From Photobacterium carnosum (GTDB lineage: Bacteria; Pseudomonadota; Gammaproteobacteria; Enterobacterales; Vibrionaceae), in NCBI RefSeq assembly GCF_002849605.1, contig NZ_NPIB01000002.1, positions 54,520-86,519 on the forward strand: a DNA stretch of 32,000 nt. The letters run 5' to 3'. The translations under genes were made by a program, and so were the position numbers. The notes under the pieces were generated by a model that was given only the letters and a program-made list of their open reading frames with translations, searched no databases and was not told the DNA's origin. Each line of letters starts with the position of its first letter. Position 1 is the stretch's first letter. Shown one piece after another: positions 5,733 through 21,101 of this stretch.

Positions 5733-6455
5733 AATTAAATTCCTCGATGATTAATATAAATATTGGTATAGCATTGCCATACAACGTAATTTACAAACGC
5801 ATTACTATAAAGTATAGCCGCAATTACTGAATTGGCATCGAACGGAATAAATGAATAAAATGTAATTAACCATTCACTTGTTTGGTAAATTATCGGGGTA
5901 AACATCGATCTTCATTGAATAAATATGTAATTATGCTGGTGGTCAAAGGTTAAGTGACAATTTGATATTGTTCGCCATATTCGTTGAGTGGAAATTAAAT
6001 AAATGGATTATGGCTTACTAATTATCATGTTGTTGAGTTCTTATTTACATCCTATAAGAAATGGTGAAAGCCCATAACCAACAACGCACAAGGTGTCCTA
6101 TTTTTTTACTAATTCTGTTACCTCTATACTTACGGTGCTGATTATTAGGTAACAAATTAAAAAGTTAACCGTTTGATTTATATTAATAATCGCTTTTTGG
6201 TCTGCCCTATATTCAAAAAAAACATAAAATAAATTCATAAAAAATAAAAATTACCAACTTTTCAGCTCATCAACTGTTCTTTAATGTTTGAGTTGAACCG
6301 TTTTAACTTGTAATGGTAATGAATGGTTATTGCTGCTTCATTGCGTAATAACCATTTATTGCATGTACTTTTCAATAATATTCAGAGCAATAAAAAGCTG
6401 CTATTAAATTTAAAATCTAGCTAAAGTTATGCGTAATAATTATTACCATTAAAGC

Positions 6456-6972
6456 GTTACGGTGTCACCCTTATTCCCTATCGCCCACCTAGTTACAGTG
6501 TCACAATATAACGCCTCCCTCCCTATAGTTACAGCGTCACGTAATCAATGAAATCACCCATAACTATGGTTGCTAAACAAGCTTTATTAAGTAAAAACAC
6601 TCAAATTAAAAGTATCGCTCAATATTTAATCATGGTGGTTCAATGAATTAGAGTTCATCGAACCACCATGATTAAATAATGTACTAAAACAGGTCATATA
6701 TAGTACAAGTTACGGTGTCACCAGTATAATGAAGAATACTAGCCTCGTGTAGTTTTGGTGGCGCCACTTTAGTACCGGTTACTTTGGGTTGCTAATTTTC
6801 AATGCACGTTGAGTTCTCGTGTAATTTTCAATGCTAACAACCATAAAGAGGATTAATTCTCTTGTATGGGATATTTATTAGTCCATCCAGCAAAGTTACT
6901 CTGTTAAATATTTTATTACATCGTGACACTGTAACGTTAAGTGTCACCGTTTCAATTCAGTGACACGGTAAC
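6456..6972. repeat. array of 13-bp motif GTTAC(R)G(Y)GTCAC (iteron, centromere or Ter-like)
   Basis: Direct copies lie at 6456-6468, 6492-6504, 6528-6540 (36-bp phasing) and 6709-6721. Inverted copies lie at 6923-6935 and 6960-6972. A 12-nt variant in direct orientation lies at 6936-6947. I did not see the motif elsewhere in the window. Confidence 0.85.
6623..6678. repeat. perfect inverted repeat or hairpin, 19-bp arms
   Basis: tatttaatcatggtggttc (6623-6641) is the exact reverse complement of gaaccaccatgattaaata (6660-6678). The 18-nt spacer contains its own atgaa/ttcat mini-palindrome. Confidence 0.85.
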
Positions 6973-7451
6973 ACTTTAATGAAATGTAATTTCGGCTGCG
7001 GTTATTGGATAGATTTTAAATTTAGTACACGCAAAATAACGCCGCTAAATCTTTTTTAAAAGTGATAACAATATATCGCTAGTATGCCAAGATAGCATAT
7101 AGTGTTCATGCTTTATCTGTAGCTACTGTTTAAAATGGAGATGTGGGTATCGTTGATTGGATTAATTCGTACAGGTACTTTTTGCTTAGTTTTGATACTT
7201 TTTAAAATAGCCGTAGTACCATTACCGAAGCAAGGTGAAATCGCTCGCAGTGGCACGTTCTATCTGTGATGTAATAATGAGTACAAGATCAATTATAAAT
7301 AGGGATTAATTTAAAAATTACTCATAACTACCAGTAAAAATATAATTCAGGCAATGAATATTAATTCACTGTTAGTTAACGTATCTTCGGGAATATACCA
7401 AATATAAGTGAATAAAGTGCGATTTTATATTCACTTTTAAGTTATGTCGGT

Positions 7452-10060: not shown

Positions 10061-10942
10061 ATGTCTGAAGATAAAAAGTTCTATTCGGCTTCATCATTAG
10101 CAAAGAGACTAGGTGTGGAATATTCAGATTTAGTTCGTGCCTTACTTTTATCACAATATGTTATGAGAGGTGCAGATCGAAAGCTTGTGCTTACAGATGA
10201 AGGTATTGCTGCAGGGGCTAAAATGGGGTCTTCGGATAAATACGGTCCTTTTATCCAATGGCCAGAAGGCTTAAATGTAGATGTTGAACTTAAAACCCCT
10301 ACTCAAAACACTAAATCGGTACCGCAAACCTCCAACAATCGTAATGCAAATACAAAAAACATTTCAAGTAGAACTTTAGCAAAGCGGCTTAATCTTGATG
10401 CTAATTACCTTAATGATATTGCTTGCGTTCTTGGTTGGGCGAGCAAAGCGAGCAAGGTGAACGGTTACCTCTCGACTAATCTTGGTTTAAAAGAAGGCAT
10501 AAGCCATGGTTATTCGTCCAAATATAATATGGCTTATTTGCTGTTTCCCCATAACATCCTAACTTATGACAAATTTAATAACTGCGTCGAGATATTTAAG
10601 CATTTAGAATTAAATAATATTGGGTTATATACCGGAACTGTCGAGTGTGTTCAAACAATGGCGGTAGATGGTCACATTGTAAATTCTATTTACCATTGCA
10701 TCATTGATAACTGGCTGCTGTTCCACGGCATCACACATATTATTAATTCTCGCAATCCATTCCCCAATACTGACTTTTTCTTACCAGAGTTAGGACTCTC
10801 GATTAAGTTCAACATGGATGAATCTACTGAAAGTATACCCATTGTCGATGAAACAAACGGTAGAATGATCACCTTTAATCCTAATAATATAATCCATATT
10901 GAAGAAGTCATGAATAAAGCATCGTTTACTTTACGTATTTAA
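10061..10942 (+). CDS. protein with two tandem HTH-like modules (293 aa)
   Basis: Internal duplication: SASSLAKRLGVEYSDL...LTDEGIAAGAKMGSSDKYGPF matches SSRTLAKRLNLDANYL...STNLGLKEGISHGYSSKYNMA. The C-terminal segment IDNWLLFHGITH...TDFFLPELGLSIKF loosely resembles a degenerate PD-(D/E)xK nuclease-fold core. Confidence 0.7.
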   Translation: MSEDKKFYSASSLAKRLGVEYSDLVRALLLSQYVMRGADRKLVLTDEGIAAGAKMGSSDKYGPFIQWPEGLNVDVELKTPTQNTKSVPQTSNNRNANTKNISSRTLAKRLNLDANYLNDIACVLGWASKASKVNGYLSTNLGLKEGISHGYSSKYNMAYLLFPHNILTYDKFNNCVEIFKHLELNNIGLYTGTVECVQTMAVDGHIVNSIYHCIIDNWLLFHGITHIINSRNPFPNTDFFLPELGLSIKFNMDESTESIPIVDETNGRMITFNPNNIIHIEEVMNKASFTLRI

Positions 10943-11060: not shown

Positions 11061-12224
11061 TTGTCTCGTGACTTAATAACAGAGACCATAATAATGCTTA
11101 CTCAAACGATAGTTAAAATAACCTTACTAGAAAAAAAAATTTTTAAAGATGAGATCCACTTACATCAACCTGGGGGTGATGTATGGAATATGTGCCAACA
11201 ATCCCATATAAATCGAAAGATCATGGAATTACAGGATAGAAGTAAATACTCACAGGAATTTTTTGATGATTATAATGATAAAAATAGTTTAGACGCCTCC
11301 ATTATAAAACGAATGTACTCCAGATTTTGGGTGTTATCCTCGGAACAAAGAGACGATGATGGAATCGCTCCTATGTTAACGATCAAAGATTTTATCGAGG
11401 TTTCCGAAAATCATTACAGAGAACATAACGACATTAGCTGTCAACGTACCGCAAAAAAGACAGTTAAAAAAATGTTCCATGGCGTCAATAAATGCTTACC
11501 GCTACCCACGCTTCTAACACCTCTAACTGGTAAGTTAATAAGCGAGTCAGAATTCAAGCTGGTACGTAGTGAATGTGGTCAGAACGTACACCTTTTCGTT
11601 AATCTTTATGACCAAGATGATGTAATACCATTCACCCCCAAAAATATAATTCGATACTATCACTACCCTAAAAAAGATGCGGTTAATTTATATCGAAATT
11701 TATGCCTCCCAAATATCAAATTATATATGCCTGTCGATGATACTAATTATACTGGTATGCCCCCTCATGAGGTCACACCGATCACTTATCTTCAAAACAA
11801 AGAAAATGGACGTATAAAAAGTGTCTGTTGGGATGTACCCGACGAATTGAAGATGATTAATCATGATTTGTTAGATAAAAATGATTTGATTGAATTAATC
11901 CAAAATGTCATTAGCCGCCCATTACCAGTTAGTAAATTATCATTATGGCGTGCAATGTGCGGAGAGTGGTACAACCGTCAAAATAATAATTTCAAATGGC
12001 ATGAGTTAAACGCTGACACTCAAAAACGGCATATAGTTAATTTTATCCGACATAGTTACTGTGGTTACACTCAGATCTACACCCTTCAAGACCGTGAATT
12101 AGCCGCTGAGTTACATGACATCGCATTTGACGCGTTACTAAGAAGGATCGGCCGCACCTTCCCATACCTCTCTGGTGAGTGTGTACGTCAGTTGAACCAC
12201 CGCTTTGATGAGGTCTATTATTAA
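11061..12224 (+). CDS. unknown-family protein, paralogue 1 (387 aa)
   Basis: Homologous over about 300 aa to the next ORF (F-x-GVNK-x-L-x-LP; YY-x-YP-x-KDA; NFIRH...GY-x-Q-x-Y; RRI-x-RTFPYL). The start is uncertain, either TTG 11061 or ATG 11094. Confidence 0.75.
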   Translation: MSRDLITETIIMLTQTIVKITLLEKKIFKDEIHLHQPGGDVWNMCQQSHINRKIMELQDRSKYSQEFFDDYNDKNSLDASIIKRMYSRFWVLSSEQRDDDGIAPMLTIKDFIEVSENHYREHNDISCQRTAKKTVKKMFHGVNKCLPLPTLLTPLTGKLISESEFKLVRSECGQNVHLFVNLYDQDDVIPFTPKNIIRYYHYPKKDAVNLYRNLCLPNIKLYMPVDDTNYTGMPPHEVTPITYLQNKENGRIKSVCWDVPDELKMINHDLLDKNDLIELIQNVISRPLPVSKLSLWRAMCGEWYNRQNNNFKWHELNADTQKRHIVNFIRHSYCGYTQIYTLQDRELAAELHDIAFDALLRRIGRTFPYLSGECVRQLNHRFDEVYY

Positions 12225-13372
12225 TGGCTAAAATAAGACAAAGACAAAAGTATCAAGATAAAATATTGCAATCAGTACAAGATAAACTGTGTACTGATAG
12301 AGAGAGAGAATTGTTAGAAGATATGGGTTTACCTGTAACCGCTAAGAGTGTTTTGTTCATGATGGAAAAACACCAAGCGGAAAGCTCTCCAGAAATTATA
12401 GATTATTCACAACGTCATTCTGTTGCAACATCTATATCGGAATGTATGTATGGTCTATTTTTAACTCAGCCAGTCGCCAATATTGACAATCAACACCGAG
12501 TGCTAAATATATCACAGCATATAAACGAACTTAGATGTTGTAAAGAAACAAGCGATTGGATCGTTGATGATTTTACCTTGCGCATTTTTAGAGGGGTTAA
12601 TAAGCGGTTAGAGTTACCTTGCGTTATTAGTAAACTCATCCTCGAATTAGAACTGCCAGCATTTAAAGCTAAAAACGTGGTGAAAGAAAGTTCTGTATTT
12701 TTATTCCAAGCGTGTGAAGTCGTTCGATTTAACGTAAAAAATTTAATTAAATATTACAATTATCCCGAAAAGGACGCCAAAGCATTTTACGAAAATTTAG
12801 CGATATATAATCAGTCCACACCACTCTACTTACCTAAAAATACGAAACACAAAAATAGAGAATTACCAGTAACATACGATAATACGGGTGATGTTATAAA
12901 AGTGTTTTGGGATATACCAACAAAACTCGTTGATGAGTTCATGCTGGAATATATTAATCATGAGAGCAGTGATCACCAGCTTGTAGAGTCAGACTTATGT
13001 GAAATTCTTAATATGTTAGATAAACCGTTGCCCATTGAAGACCTAAGCTTTTGGAAAATATTGGCAAAACAATTTTATATGGATAACGGTGAAGATTGGT
13101 CAGCGATGTCCGTGTCTCGACAAAAAAGGCTACTCACAAACTTTATTAGGCACAATATCCCAGGTTATAGTCAGGCATATCAGTTAAATGACAGAGCATT
13201 AGCTAAACGTCTGCATGATGATTATTTTGATCTAGTAATGAGACGGATAGCTCGCACGTTCCCTTACTTGGCTAATGAATGCAATAACCAATGGAGTTAT
13301 CGAGAAGGTAAGAACAATAATTCTGATGGTCTAATTGATAACTCAGGTAAGAAGCAATCTTTGCTTGATTAG
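12224..13372 (+). CDS. unknown-family protein, paralogue 2 (382 aa)
   Basis: Its ATG overlaps the upstream TAA stop by 1 nt (TAATG), suggesting translational coupling. It shares the conserved blocks of paralogue 1. Confidence 0.8.
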   Translation: MAKIRQRQKYQDKILQSVQDKLCTDRERELLEDMGLPVTAKSVLFMMEKHQAESSPEIIDYSQRHSVATSISECMYGLFLTQPVANIDNQHRVLNISQHINELRCCKETSDWIVDDFTLRIFRGVNKRLELPCVISKLILELELPAFKAKNVVKESSVFLFQACEVVRFNVKNLIKYYNYPEKDAKAFYENLAIYNQSTPLYLPKNTKHKNRELPVTYDNTGDVIKVFWDIPTKLVDEFMLEYINHESSDHQLVESDLCEILNMLDKPLPIEDLSFWKILAKQFYMDNGEDWSAMSVSRQKRLLTNFIRHNIPGYSQAYQLNDRALAKRLHDDYFDLVMRRIARTFPYLANECNNQWSYREGKNNNSDGLIDNSGKKQSLLD

Positions 13373-20180: not shown

Positions 20181-21101
20181 ATGTCTAAGCAATCTAAAAT
20201 TGAGCAAAACTTAAAACATCTAAAATACCAACTAGACAGAGAGATAAATAATTTAACCTCCCTACTAAGAACATTGGATGTTATAGACAGTAAGGTTTAT
20301 CTACTTCCAGAAATAAAAGATGCCGATACTCATAAAGATATTAAAAAGATTAGCGTGTCATTAGTGTCTGATTATAAAGCTTTTAATTTGGCTCTACAGT
20401 CTTTTTCAACTTTTGAAAAAGGTCTCGGGGATTCAGGTAAAAGAGCTTTTAGGTTACCGGGGTATTTGGTTGTAAATGGAAGTGCTATTCAAAAAGAAAA
20501 CCTATACGAAAACATAACTAGGATAAACAAGTTAAAAGATGATTTTAAAAAACAGGTTCAGGGCTATAGTAAAAATTCTAATAAGAAATACAATCTAGTT
20601 CATAGTCTGTTTAATAATCTGATGACTGTGCAAGTATACAGGCATATTCCATTGGTTACGGAAAATGTCGAATATATAAATTTTAGTTGGACAAATAAGC
20701 ACATTACATATAAAACATCTATACAAGAAATTTTAAACTTGTTAGATAGACACAGAAAAAAAACACCAAAGAGAAGTAATTCTGAAGATTGGAATCGAAT
20801 TATTGACAACGAAATTTCTATTATTAATGAATTACCAAAGGATACGACGTTAAGATTTAAACGAGTAAGTAAGCCTATTACTAGAGTTGATGTAGTCCCA
20901 TATAAGAAAAACAAACAAATTATATCAAATATACCATTAATTCTTTTTCAAACAGAAAAGCCCGTTGTTAGTAATCTTCAAGACTATCTAAGTGCACAAA
21001 GGCGAAGTTTCCGCGAAGATACTACAATCTATGGGATACCTGTCATTAAAAGATTGCATTTATATAAGAAACATATCAAACGAGTAACTAACTTAAAGTA
21101 A
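20181..21101 (+). CDS. tus: Tus-like DNA replication terminus site-binding protein
   Basis: Blocks are collinear with E. coli Tus as I recall it: VYLLPEIKDADTH vs VFSLPEVKKEDEH; AFRLPGYLV vs AVRLPGVLC; NITRINKLKDDF vs HIQHINKLKTTF; INFSWTNKHI vs LRFGWANKHI; RFKRVSKPITRV vs KIKRPVKVQPIARV; VIKRLHLYKK vs IIPRLHLYVAD. Starting at ATG 20181 gives 306 aa and aligns the N-termini. The tracked start at 20058 adds 41 unmatched residues. Confidence 0.8.
   Translation: MSKQSKIEQNLKHLKYQLDREINNLTSLLRTLDVIDSKVYLLPEIKDADTHKDIKKISVSLVSDYKAFNLALQSFSTFEKGLGDSGKRAFRLPGYLVVNGSAIQKENLYENITRINKLKDDFKKQVQGYSKNSNKKYNLVHSLFNNLMTVQVYRHIPLVTENVEYINFSWTNKHITYKTSIQEILNLLDRHRKKTPKRSNSEDWNRIIDNEISIINELPKDTTLRFKRVSKPITRVDVVPYKKNKQIISNIPLILFQTEKPVVSNLQDYLSAQRRSFREDTTIYGIPVIKRLHLYKKHIKRVTNLK

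Follow-up and report, generated by a model that had tools for sequence, protein, structure and literature searches.

We describe here a compact array of 13-bp motifs (positions 6456 to 6972) in a 32,000-nucleotide stretch of Photobacterium carnosum DNA (contig NZ_NPIB01000002.1, forward strand, 54,520 to 86,519; this whole stretch is referred to as the window, and positions are those of the window unless another replicon is named). Judged by comparison among related replicons, the array is a real, single-locus cis-acting site that is asymmetric, under purifying selection and conserved across diverged Photobacterium megaplasmids. We tentatively read it, with a confidence somewhat short of even, as a compact replication fork trap, in which the 13-mers would be divergent Ter sites for the plasmid's own Tus protein.

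Six copies of the motif (GTTAC-V-G-Y-GTCAC) are present in the window, where 0.06 would be expected by chance, and none of 100 shuffles matched this number. They were the only six sites returned when both strands were searched with the pattern GTTACRGYGTCAC at no more than one mismatch (GTTACNNNGTCAC is the pattern for pairs of 13-mers), and they lie where an earlier, sequence-only reading of this DNA had placed them: at 6456, 6492, 6528 and 6709 on the plus strand and at 6923 and 6960 on the minus strand. Their start-to-start spacings (36, 36, 181, 214 and 37 bp) bear out the 36-bp phasing noted for the first three copies. The proposed consensus stands in its overall form; the position written as R, however, is C in the copy at 6960 and becomes V. 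Also found as described were a 12-nt variant at 6936, a 25-nt near-palindrome at 6923 and three pairs of short repeats (6793/6822, 6568/6787 and 6342/6430). The surrounding island (5733 to 7451) had been said to contain no credible open reading frame (ORF) of 60 amino acids (aa) or more, and the longest that we found there encodes 56 aa (5735 to 5905). The island has no tRNA and no Rfam family (Rfam gave only spurious miRNA-hairpin matches to a palindrome described below). Promoter-like matches in the island are at chance level and no terminator-like site lies within the array; a single terminator-like match, at 5766 to 5782, is likewise at chance level.

That the element is a plasmid, as the sequence-only reading implied, is borne out by its match to a 264,682-bp circular plasmid of Photobacterium toruni (NZ_CP101696.1), to which the window is ca. 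99% and the island 97.7% identical. In addition, a P. carnosum contig of 265,951 bp encodes a protein with 100% identity to the Tus of the window. The P. toruni replicon is a MOBH conjugative megaplasmid with F-type tra genes, MobI and a MobH relaxase. Three initiators are encoded on it, namely, Rep (210 kb, beside dnaN), RepB (218 kb) and an RctB-domain protein (256 kb), together with ParM, a ParB/Spo0J-like protein, a Tus homologue and a type Ia ParA whose partner is of 372 aa. The sequence-only reading had offered a motif scattered over the replicon as grounds for refutation, and this is not what was seen; in the complete plasmid, copies with no or one mismatch occur only at the array locus.

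The window and the P. toruni plasmid differ at 39 places in 5733 to 7451, of which 34 lie in 6400 to 7101, and none of these 34 falls within the 78 bp of the six motifs (P = 0.018). In P. toruni, the defective 12-nt variant (GTTAAGTGTCAC, one base deleted; plus strand, 6936 to 6947) has a C-to-T change at 6945, whereas the six intact copies have none; this points to a lack of constraint on the variant. As a separate observation, 6400 to 7101 is a local hot spot of substitutions and small indels, with the motifs spared; its divergence is ca. 4.8%, compared with ca. 0.8% over the window as a whole.

Whole plasmids of P. toruni and Photobacterium damselae (p1; NZ_CP076735.1, 299,701 bp) were also scanned de novo for clustered 13-mers (both strands, up to two mismatches), with no prior motif input for p1. 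In P. toruni the scan recovered the array locus. In p1 it recovered the same 13-mer, at 81345 and 81382 on the plus strand and at 81523, 81757 and 81794 on the minus strand, and this is the sole locus of the motif in that plasmid. BLAST gave no link between the window and the P. damselae islands. When window and p1 were aligned with MAFFT, only a few blocks were found to be kept, namely, the 13-mers with the sequences flanking the outermost copies, an outer inverted repeat and, at the left, a 33-bp A+T-rich block; the flanks of orthologous copies are identical at 2 to 6 of 12 positions, which is the chance level. The spacers, which had been described as C-rich, are indeed so in the window, but this is not kept in the P. 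damselae version. The flanking genes differ too, the p1 array lying between an endonuclease-I gene and a 97-aa ORF.

A further P. damselae plasmid, plas1 (NZ_CP018299.1), has a 9.4-kb Tn3-family/IS26 resistance insertion between its plus and minus blocks and keeps all five copies, four of them exact and one (p5) with the position-7 G-to-C variant also present in P. damselae d5. Among the 16 copies of the window, p1 and plas1, 10 of the 13 motif positions are invariant and variation is confined to positions 6 to 8 (position 7 is G in 14 copies), while the asymmetry between GTTAC and GTCAC (T at position 3, C at position 11) is kept in all 16. The window, P. toruni, p1 and plas1 have the same layout of a plus block followed by a minus block, and the lineage-specific extra copies (w1 and w4 in the window, d3 in P. 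damselae) still obey this order. Pattern scans of 185,579 representative genomes and of metagenome and viral collections returned no related array, only unrelated tandem repeats.

The candidate binding protein is a Tus homologue encoded 13 kb from the array (plus strand, 20181 to 21101; PF05472, E = 1e-56; E. coli Tus structures 1ECR/4XR0, E = 2e-20). In the proposed fork trap, Tus would bind each asymmetric 13-mer as a monomer, and the left (same-sense) and right (opposite-sense) blocks would face each other. A fork coming from either side would cross the first block, displacing Tus from its permissive face, and would then be arrested at the nonpermissive face of the second. Replication of the ca. 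265-kb plasmid, starting at the Rep, RepB and RctB origins 100 to 150 kb away, would end inside the ca. 600-bp locus.

An intact Tus-family gene accompanies the array in all replicons that have it (the window, P. toruni, p1 and plas1). The window protein is 49 to 50% identical to the Tus proteins of the array-bearing P. damselae plasmids, and the alignment keeps P42, H50, K89, RLPG, H144, YR, W-x-NK and KR232, that is, the DNA-binding signature. No tus gene is resident in Vibrionales, and "mobile" tus genes located on plasmids are known (PMC6549158), for instance on pAQU1 and IncA/C plasmids (PMC4036041). Given a host order without a resident tus, a plasmid-borne Tus needs sites on the plasmid. 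A search for E. coli-type Ter (pattern GNRNGTTGTAAYKA, at most one mismatch) gave scattered chance matches only, none of them in the island. As the array-bearing plasmids thus lack an E. coli-type Ter, the cognate site must exist and look different.

The E. coli ter is a nonpalindromic 23-bp site with 12 conserved core positions, 6 and 8 to 18 (PMC8347550), and enterobacterial Tus orthologues at 46 to 59% identity keep their Ter (PMC8707476). The information content of the 13-mer is like that of the E. coli Ter core. The two also have GTAAC/GTTAC in common. An identical 13-mer is found in plasmids whose Tus proteins are ca. 50% identical, whereas RctB, which we rejected as a binder, is only 26% identical between the same plasmids and has different iterons. 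In all three plasmids the array lies 42 to 45% of the circle from the RctB origin. It is within or at the edge of the plateau of the cumulative GC-skew maximum (78 to 114 kb in P. toruni, 70 to 100 kb in p1), and on the tus-proximal side of the same syntenic block, 13 to 50 kb from tus. A fork trap would not suffer from an insertion between its blocks, as in plas1, whereas a recombination synapse or an origin would be damaged. Elimination also favours Tus as the leading candidate, since Rep, RepB, RctB and the ParA/372-aa pair each have their own sites.

Several points weigh against a Tus-based trap. In our own alignment, the similarity to the E. coli core (which we take to be GTATGTTGTAAC) is weak, at 7 to 8 of 12 to 13 positions, and is equal in either orientation. 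The latter arises because the 13-mer is pseudo-symmetric (GTnAC-N3-GTnAC), and the polarity of the trap consequently cannot be assigned. The residues of the C6 lock, as listed in PMC10331603, are only partly kept: H144 is conserved, but the counterparts of F140, G149, E49 and E47 are Y, N, T and A, respectively, and the region of I79 is deleted. No 13-mer site lies beside tus, unlike in enterobacteria, and a monomeric Tus does not explain the 36- to 37-bp pair spacing, the terminal flanks or the central palindrome. The position of the array is only approximately that of a terminus, and the skew evidence is of low resolution; in P. toruni, GC skew and the octamer GGGNAGGG switch 20 to 35 kb from the array, and in Vibrio cholerae pW7G the skew does not match the annotated origin. 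Vibrio relatives whose Tus is 31 to 36% identical lack the array and have one isolated exact 13-mer each. Finally, all array-bearing plasmids are built on one backbone, so that co-occurrence cannot separate Tus from other backbone proteins, one of which, a tyrosine recombinase, is conserved at 63% identity. Contigs encoding Tus at 70 to 75% identity are too short to reach any array.

The GGGNAGGG octamers (KOPS-like) were seen to form two strand-pure arcs in both the P. toruni plasmid and p1. In P. toruni (n = 14) they are on the plus strand from 250.9 kb through 0 to 50.4 kb and on the minus strand from 76.0 to 181.1 kb. The switch is near a conserved LytTR/Dam/integrase gene group and not at the 13-mer array, and the arcs may only mirror GC skew.

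It is also conceivable, although we think it unlikely, that the locus is not a Tus site at all and is instead an undescribed cis-acting maintenance element of MOBH megaplasmids. In this nested dyad of ca. 600 bp, a backbone protein not recognised so far would bind the asymmetric 13-mers cooperatively, in pairs 36 to 37 bp apart. The element could then be a segregation site, a terminus organiser or a novel type of fork barrier, without a described family.

The pseudo-symmetry of the motif bears on a more specific proposal, also raised in the sequence-only reading, namely, that the array is a plasmid centromere. In its present form this would be a centromere-like or ParB/KorB-type array in which dimers of a partition or silencing protein sit on the pseudo-palindromic 13-mers (6-N-6) and serve segregation or global regulation. 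The near-palindrome GTTACr-G-yGTCAC has the length and centre of the Vibrio chromosome-2 parS2 site and matches it at 9 to 10 of 13 positions when NTTTACANTGTAAAN is taken as the full parS2 consensus. The parS2 site is 15 bp, and its half-site TGTAAA is conserved in all 10 sites (PMC3688505). Clustered repeats in noncoding DNA are typical of plasmid centromeres, a centromere tolerates transposon insertion between blocks, the conserved 36- to 37-bp spacing suggests cooperative binding, and pW7G, which lacks the array, also lacks the RctB/ParA module. Nonetheless, we regard a centromere as rather improbable. The T/C asymmetry of all 16 copies and the convergent order of the blocks are not relevant to a symmetric dimer, and all par genes are over 100 kb distant from the array. 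Furthermore, the ParA(HTH_54)/372-aa pair (83% and 76% identical between plasmids; the 372-aa partner has no Pfam match) has a conserved sopC-like array of its own directly downstream. That Par system is thereby accounted for, and we rejected the pair as a binder of the 13-mer. The earlier suggestion of a centromere is weakened by this second array but stands as a rival.

The sopC-like centromere itself comprises ca. 40 tandem units of 49 to 50 bp in P. toruni (250.9 to 252.9 kb; L007:880-2880) and ca. 10 in p1 (261.0 to 261.45 kb), with a common inverted-repeat core, ATCGTwTC-AGGGGTG-rwACGAT.

The sequence-only reading had named first an iteron origin with its Rep operator. Taken broadly, this would be an iteron-type origin or incompatibility locus served by the flanking orphan genes or by a distant Rep. 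Direct repeats and an inverted pair are certainly there, a conserved A+T-rich block is adjacent, and distant clusters of initiator-titrating iterons occur on Vibrio chromosome 2 (PMC6212839). We nevertheless consider this the most improbable of the explanations discussed here. No DnaA box was found in the island of the window or in that of P. damselae. The island's only exact match to the IHF consensus (window 6166) has no counterpart in the P. damselae island, and GATC is depleted, with none in 5908 to 7286, where the 1,719-bp island as a whole would be expected to hold ca. 5. The repeats are 13-bp units phased at 36 to 37 bp, as opposed to ca. 20 bp at ca. 22 bp. Moreover, iterons unlike the 13-mer lie beside each of the three initiator genes. 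Between dnaN and rep there are ten such iterons of 22 bp, along with a 36-bp repeat and a perfect DnaA box (TTATCCACA); in each of the three plasmids compared, three or four iterons, also of 22 bp, precede the RepB gene; and RctB likewise has iterons next to its gene.

The orphan proteins of 526 and 213 aa, encoded on either side of the island, had been put forward as the obvious binding proteins. Neither has a Pfam, NCBIfam, PHROG or PDB match, in line with the accompanying remark that they resemble no recognised Rep or Par family, and single-sequence AlphaFold2 models of both were unusable (predicted local distance difference test score of 33). Neither has a homologue in other PLSDB plasmids. 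Because both are absent from the P. damselae plasmids, which have the array without them, they cannot be the conserved binder, and the origin/Rep reading fails on this count. A telomere-resolution site next to a gene of protelomerase size was also considered and rejected: the 526-aa protein gives no recombinase or protelomerase signal, the record is circular, and the gene is absent from the P. damselae plasmids.

The sequence-only reading missed the fact that the whole locus is a nested dyad of ca. 600 bp. In the window, the outer inverted repeat, the 22-bp ends and the w2/w5 pair have a common centre at 6713.5 to 6714.5, and this coincides with the centre of the 13-mer w4 (plus strand, 6709 to 6721), which lies exactly on it. 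In P. damselae, the three corresponding pairs are centred together at 81575.5 to 81576.5. Each arm is a conserved module of ca. 100 bp, the two arms being inverted, and each runs from the outer repeat to a flanked 13-mer (50 to 53 bp, start to start) and from there to a second 13-mer (36 to 37 bp, start to start). Between the arms are 360 to 420 bp of variable DNA with the lineage-specific extra copies and a long palindrome.

At the left, a conserved A+T-rich block (plus strand, 6384 to 6418) has the same base as p1 in 33 of 36 aligned columns, while the neighbouring DNA is unalignable, and the left outer inverted repeat (AAATTTAAAATCT, 6406 to 6418) stands at its end. The left terminal 22-mer (plus strand, 6447 to 6468), made up of the flank CATTAAAGC and the 13-mer w1 (6456 to 6468), matches the reverse complement of 6960 to 6981 at 20 of 22 positions. 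The 22-mer form of the flanked 13-mer is CATTAAAGTGTTACCGTGTCAC, and the flank TTAAAsT is found on the outermost P. damselae copies as well. Next come w2 (GTTACAGTGTCAC; plus strand, 6492 to 6504) and w3 (GTTACAGCGTCAC; plus strand, 6528 to 6540), which align with P. damselae d1 and d2, respectively. On the right, a degenerate relic of the 13-mer with three mismatches (6895 to 6907) occupies the mirror position of w3, as computed from the dyad centres, and w5 (minus strand, 6923 to 6935; the plus strand reads GTGACACTGTAAC) is the mirror partner of w2. The right terminal 22-mer (minus strand, 6960 to 6981), the inverted match to the left one, consists of w6 (6960 to 6972) and the flank ACTTTAATG. 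The right outer inverted repeat (minus strand, 7011 to 7023) is the reverse complement of AAATTTAAAATCT; its P. damselae counterpart, ATTTCAAATTT, shares the P. damselae dyad centre. The long palindrome (6623 to 6676; arms of ca. 25 bp and a 4-nt centre), also missed before, has a predicted DNA fold of -22.2 kcal/mol (z = -9.1). Both of the differences between the window and P. toruni within it (6642 and 6653) turn a mismatch or wobble into a Watson-Crick pair, and the P. damselae palindrome, of different sequence, has the same inner ATGAA-N6-TTCAT.

This architecture might be taken for a site of site-specific recombination (for multimer resolution, or attP-like), with the 13-mers as arm-type or accessory sites oppositely oriented on the two arms, the palindrome as the crossover core and the backbone tyrosine recombinase as the enzyme. 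The nested dyad, the two ca. 100-bp arm modules and a palindrome whose inner 5-6-5 is conserved between plasmids all fit. So does the recombinase, which is 63% identical between P. toruni and P. damselae and is absent from pW7G, a plasmid likewise without the array; several integrase genes are also present within 10 to 30 kb. On the other hand, the palindrome is off the dyad axis of the arms by 65 bp in the window and by 17 bp in P. damselae, the insertion in plas1 separates one arm, no recombinase gene is adjacent, and no convincing dif- or cer-like core was found. A spacing of 36 bp is unusual for arm-type sites, which we also count against recombination. Taken together, we think such a site rather unlikely.

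Alternatively, inverted ends bring to mind a relic or nonautonomous transposable element of the Tn7, Tn402 or Mu kind, in which transposase-binding repeats lie just inside the terminal inverted repeats. The 22-bp ends match in inverted orientation at 20 of 22 positions, with further inward-facing copies on both arms, and the P. toruni plasmid has a Tn7-like CRISPR-associated transposon. Repeats in the syntenic island of a Vibrio campbellii plasmid resemble Tn7 TnsB sites. We hold a transposon to be very unlikely, however, as there is one copy per plasmid with no relative in the genome, metagenome or viral collections, there are no TG...CA termini and no target-site duplication, and the Tn7-like element of the plasmid does not have the motif at its ends. 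A transposon would also leave unexplained why, with no transposase, the motifs are under purifying selection where they stand. Furthermore, conservation between the window and P. damselae reaches beyond the inverted repeats, which indicates that the loci are orthologous and not independent insertions.

The Tn7-like CRISPR-associated transposon (TnsA, TnsB, TniB, TniQ, Csy2, Csy3 and Cas6f) is at 177.9 to 194.8 kb of the P. toruni plasmid (L005:27900-44800), outside the window, and a 1,235-aa protein with a reverse transcriptase domain is encoded in the same region.

Two Vibrio relatives proved to be false leads. In V. campbellii pIFL1_1, the syntenic gene-free island (L137:5700-6190) has two nested sets of opposed repeats, CAATAAAGTTTGTACA and ACAATAAAGTTCGCCCG, and the plasmid has one isolated exact 13-mer at 6373. 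The repeats resemble what we take to be Tn7-type TnsB-binding end repeats, and we dropped this island as an analogue of the array because its opposed repeats look like Tn7-type ends. In pW7G, whose Tus is 36% identical, three 13-mer-like copies at 25.7, 30.5 and 38.6 kb are convergent around the GC-skew peak and might have passed for a dispersed fork trap. They sit, however, at the same codon (GDPVTEY) of three paralogous genes, 73 to 78% identical, for secreted-looking proteins of 466 to 531 aa (L139:24791-39634), and so reflect paralogy and are not Ter sites. The findings in these two plasmids neither support nor refute the Ter reading.

One further proposal is that the array is an operator. 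Its protein would be some transcription factor or nucleoid-associated protein of the backbone, which might act on local DNA structure or on a gene for a small RNA or peptide in the island. In its favour, the gene-free island holds a conserved cis site, many uncharacterised proteins common to P. toruni and P. damselae are absent from pW7G, and a small ORF in the island is partly conserved in another contig. This ORF, at 7135 to 7269 on the plus strand, encodes a hydrophobic 44-aa product (MEMWVSLIGLIRTGTFCLVLILFKIAVVPLPKQGEIARSGTFYL), perhaps a small membrane peptide; the 3' part of the ORF recurs in conserved form where an unrelated metagenome contig (L151) begins. Against an operator, the flanking genes are not conserved between plasmids, the promoter, terminator and Rfam searches described above were empty or at chance level, and a symmetric 600-bp structure with five or six sites far exceeds what an operator needs. 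We therefore judge it distinctly unlikely.

Some neighbouring genes and a second motif are described for completeness. The window encodes two paralogues of 387 and 382 aa (plus strand, 11061 to 12224 and 12224 to 13372) and a 293-aa neighbour (plus strand, 10061 to 10942), which we discarded as binders of the 13-mer, there being no family or PDB match. All three are missing from pW7G; in p1 their counterparts, at 39 to 52% identity, are encoded between an EAL gene and the array. Among 5.8 billion proteins, the 387-aa family accounts for only 7 clusters. One member, 40% identical, is encoded next to a PD-(D/E)XK protein and the S subunit of a type I restriction system, a setting which suggests that these neighbours are accessory or defence genes. 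The second motif, also of 13 bp (GTAAGTGCATTAC), is dispersed in both orientations over the P. toruni plasmid (ca. 20 copies) and p1 (ca. 18 copies), at up to one mismatch and with a chance expectation well below 1, and does not occur in pW7G. One copy is 200 bp to the left of the P. damselae array (e.g., L131:1593, record 81139). This motif may be the operator of a global plasmid regulator.

If the array is indeed a fork trap, it would be a variant of a known system. Like Tus-Ter of E. coli and other Enterobacterales, it would combine a replicon-encoded Tus-family protein (PF05472) with a short, nonpalindromic site of ca. 11 to 12 conserved positions, arranged in two opposed groups, kept across Tus proteins of ca. 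50% identity and lying far from the origins, in or at the edge of the region of the skew maximum. It differs in the site itself (GTTAC-VGY-GTCAC here, versus a core that we take to be GTTGTAAC with G/C at position 6) and in the confinement of the sites to 0.5 kb at a 36- to 37-bp phasing, where those of Enterobacterales are spread over hundreds of kilobases. It differs also in that no site lies beside tus, the C6-lock residues are only partly conserved, and the replicon is a plasmid in a host order without a resident Tus.

For its compactness the locus has precedents in the R6K ter pair and in IR-I/IR-II of the Bacillus subtilis RTP system, which are dyad-symmetric fork traps of tens to hundreds of base pairs. 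Each arm of IR-I/IR-II is a pair of adjacent binding sites, much as each arm here has a pair 36 to 37 bp apart; RTP, however, is an unrelated, dimeric winged-helix protein. R6K (mentioned in PMC10331603) uses host Tus and canonical Ter, whereas here the terminator protein would be plasmid encoded and the site sequence new. With sopC of the F plasmid and parS2 of Vibrio chromosome 2, the array shares phased, short, near-palindromic sites (13 bp as 6-N-6) in noncoding plasmid DNA, but its sites are strictly asymmetric, its blocks convergent and its distance from the par operons over 100 kb. Iteron origins (RK2, P1, pSC101 and Vibrio ori2) likewise have direct repeats with inverted copies and an adjacent, conserved A+T-rich block. 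Unlike these, the present locus has no adjacent rep gene, no DnaA box or GATC, and a different repeat length and phasing.

Tus genes are common on gammaproteobacterial plasmids, and it is from these genes that the chromosomal fork trap is believed to derive (PMC6549158). Nevertheless, the literature that we searched defines no Ter site for any "mobile" Tus, and on Pseudoalteromonas chromids, too, a search for Ter with the E. coli consensus failed (PMC7858055). Should the Tus-based reading be correct, the 13-mer would be the first Ter sequence for a divergent Tus clade, and the array would be a natural, compact tandem trap that is open to direct testing. It would also offer a second specificity for studying DNA recognition and locking by Tus. 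Even if Tus is not the binder, the array is a strongly selected, unexplained cis element. If Tus is the binder, the array would mark the replication terminus in a family of aquaculture-associated resistance megaplasmids.

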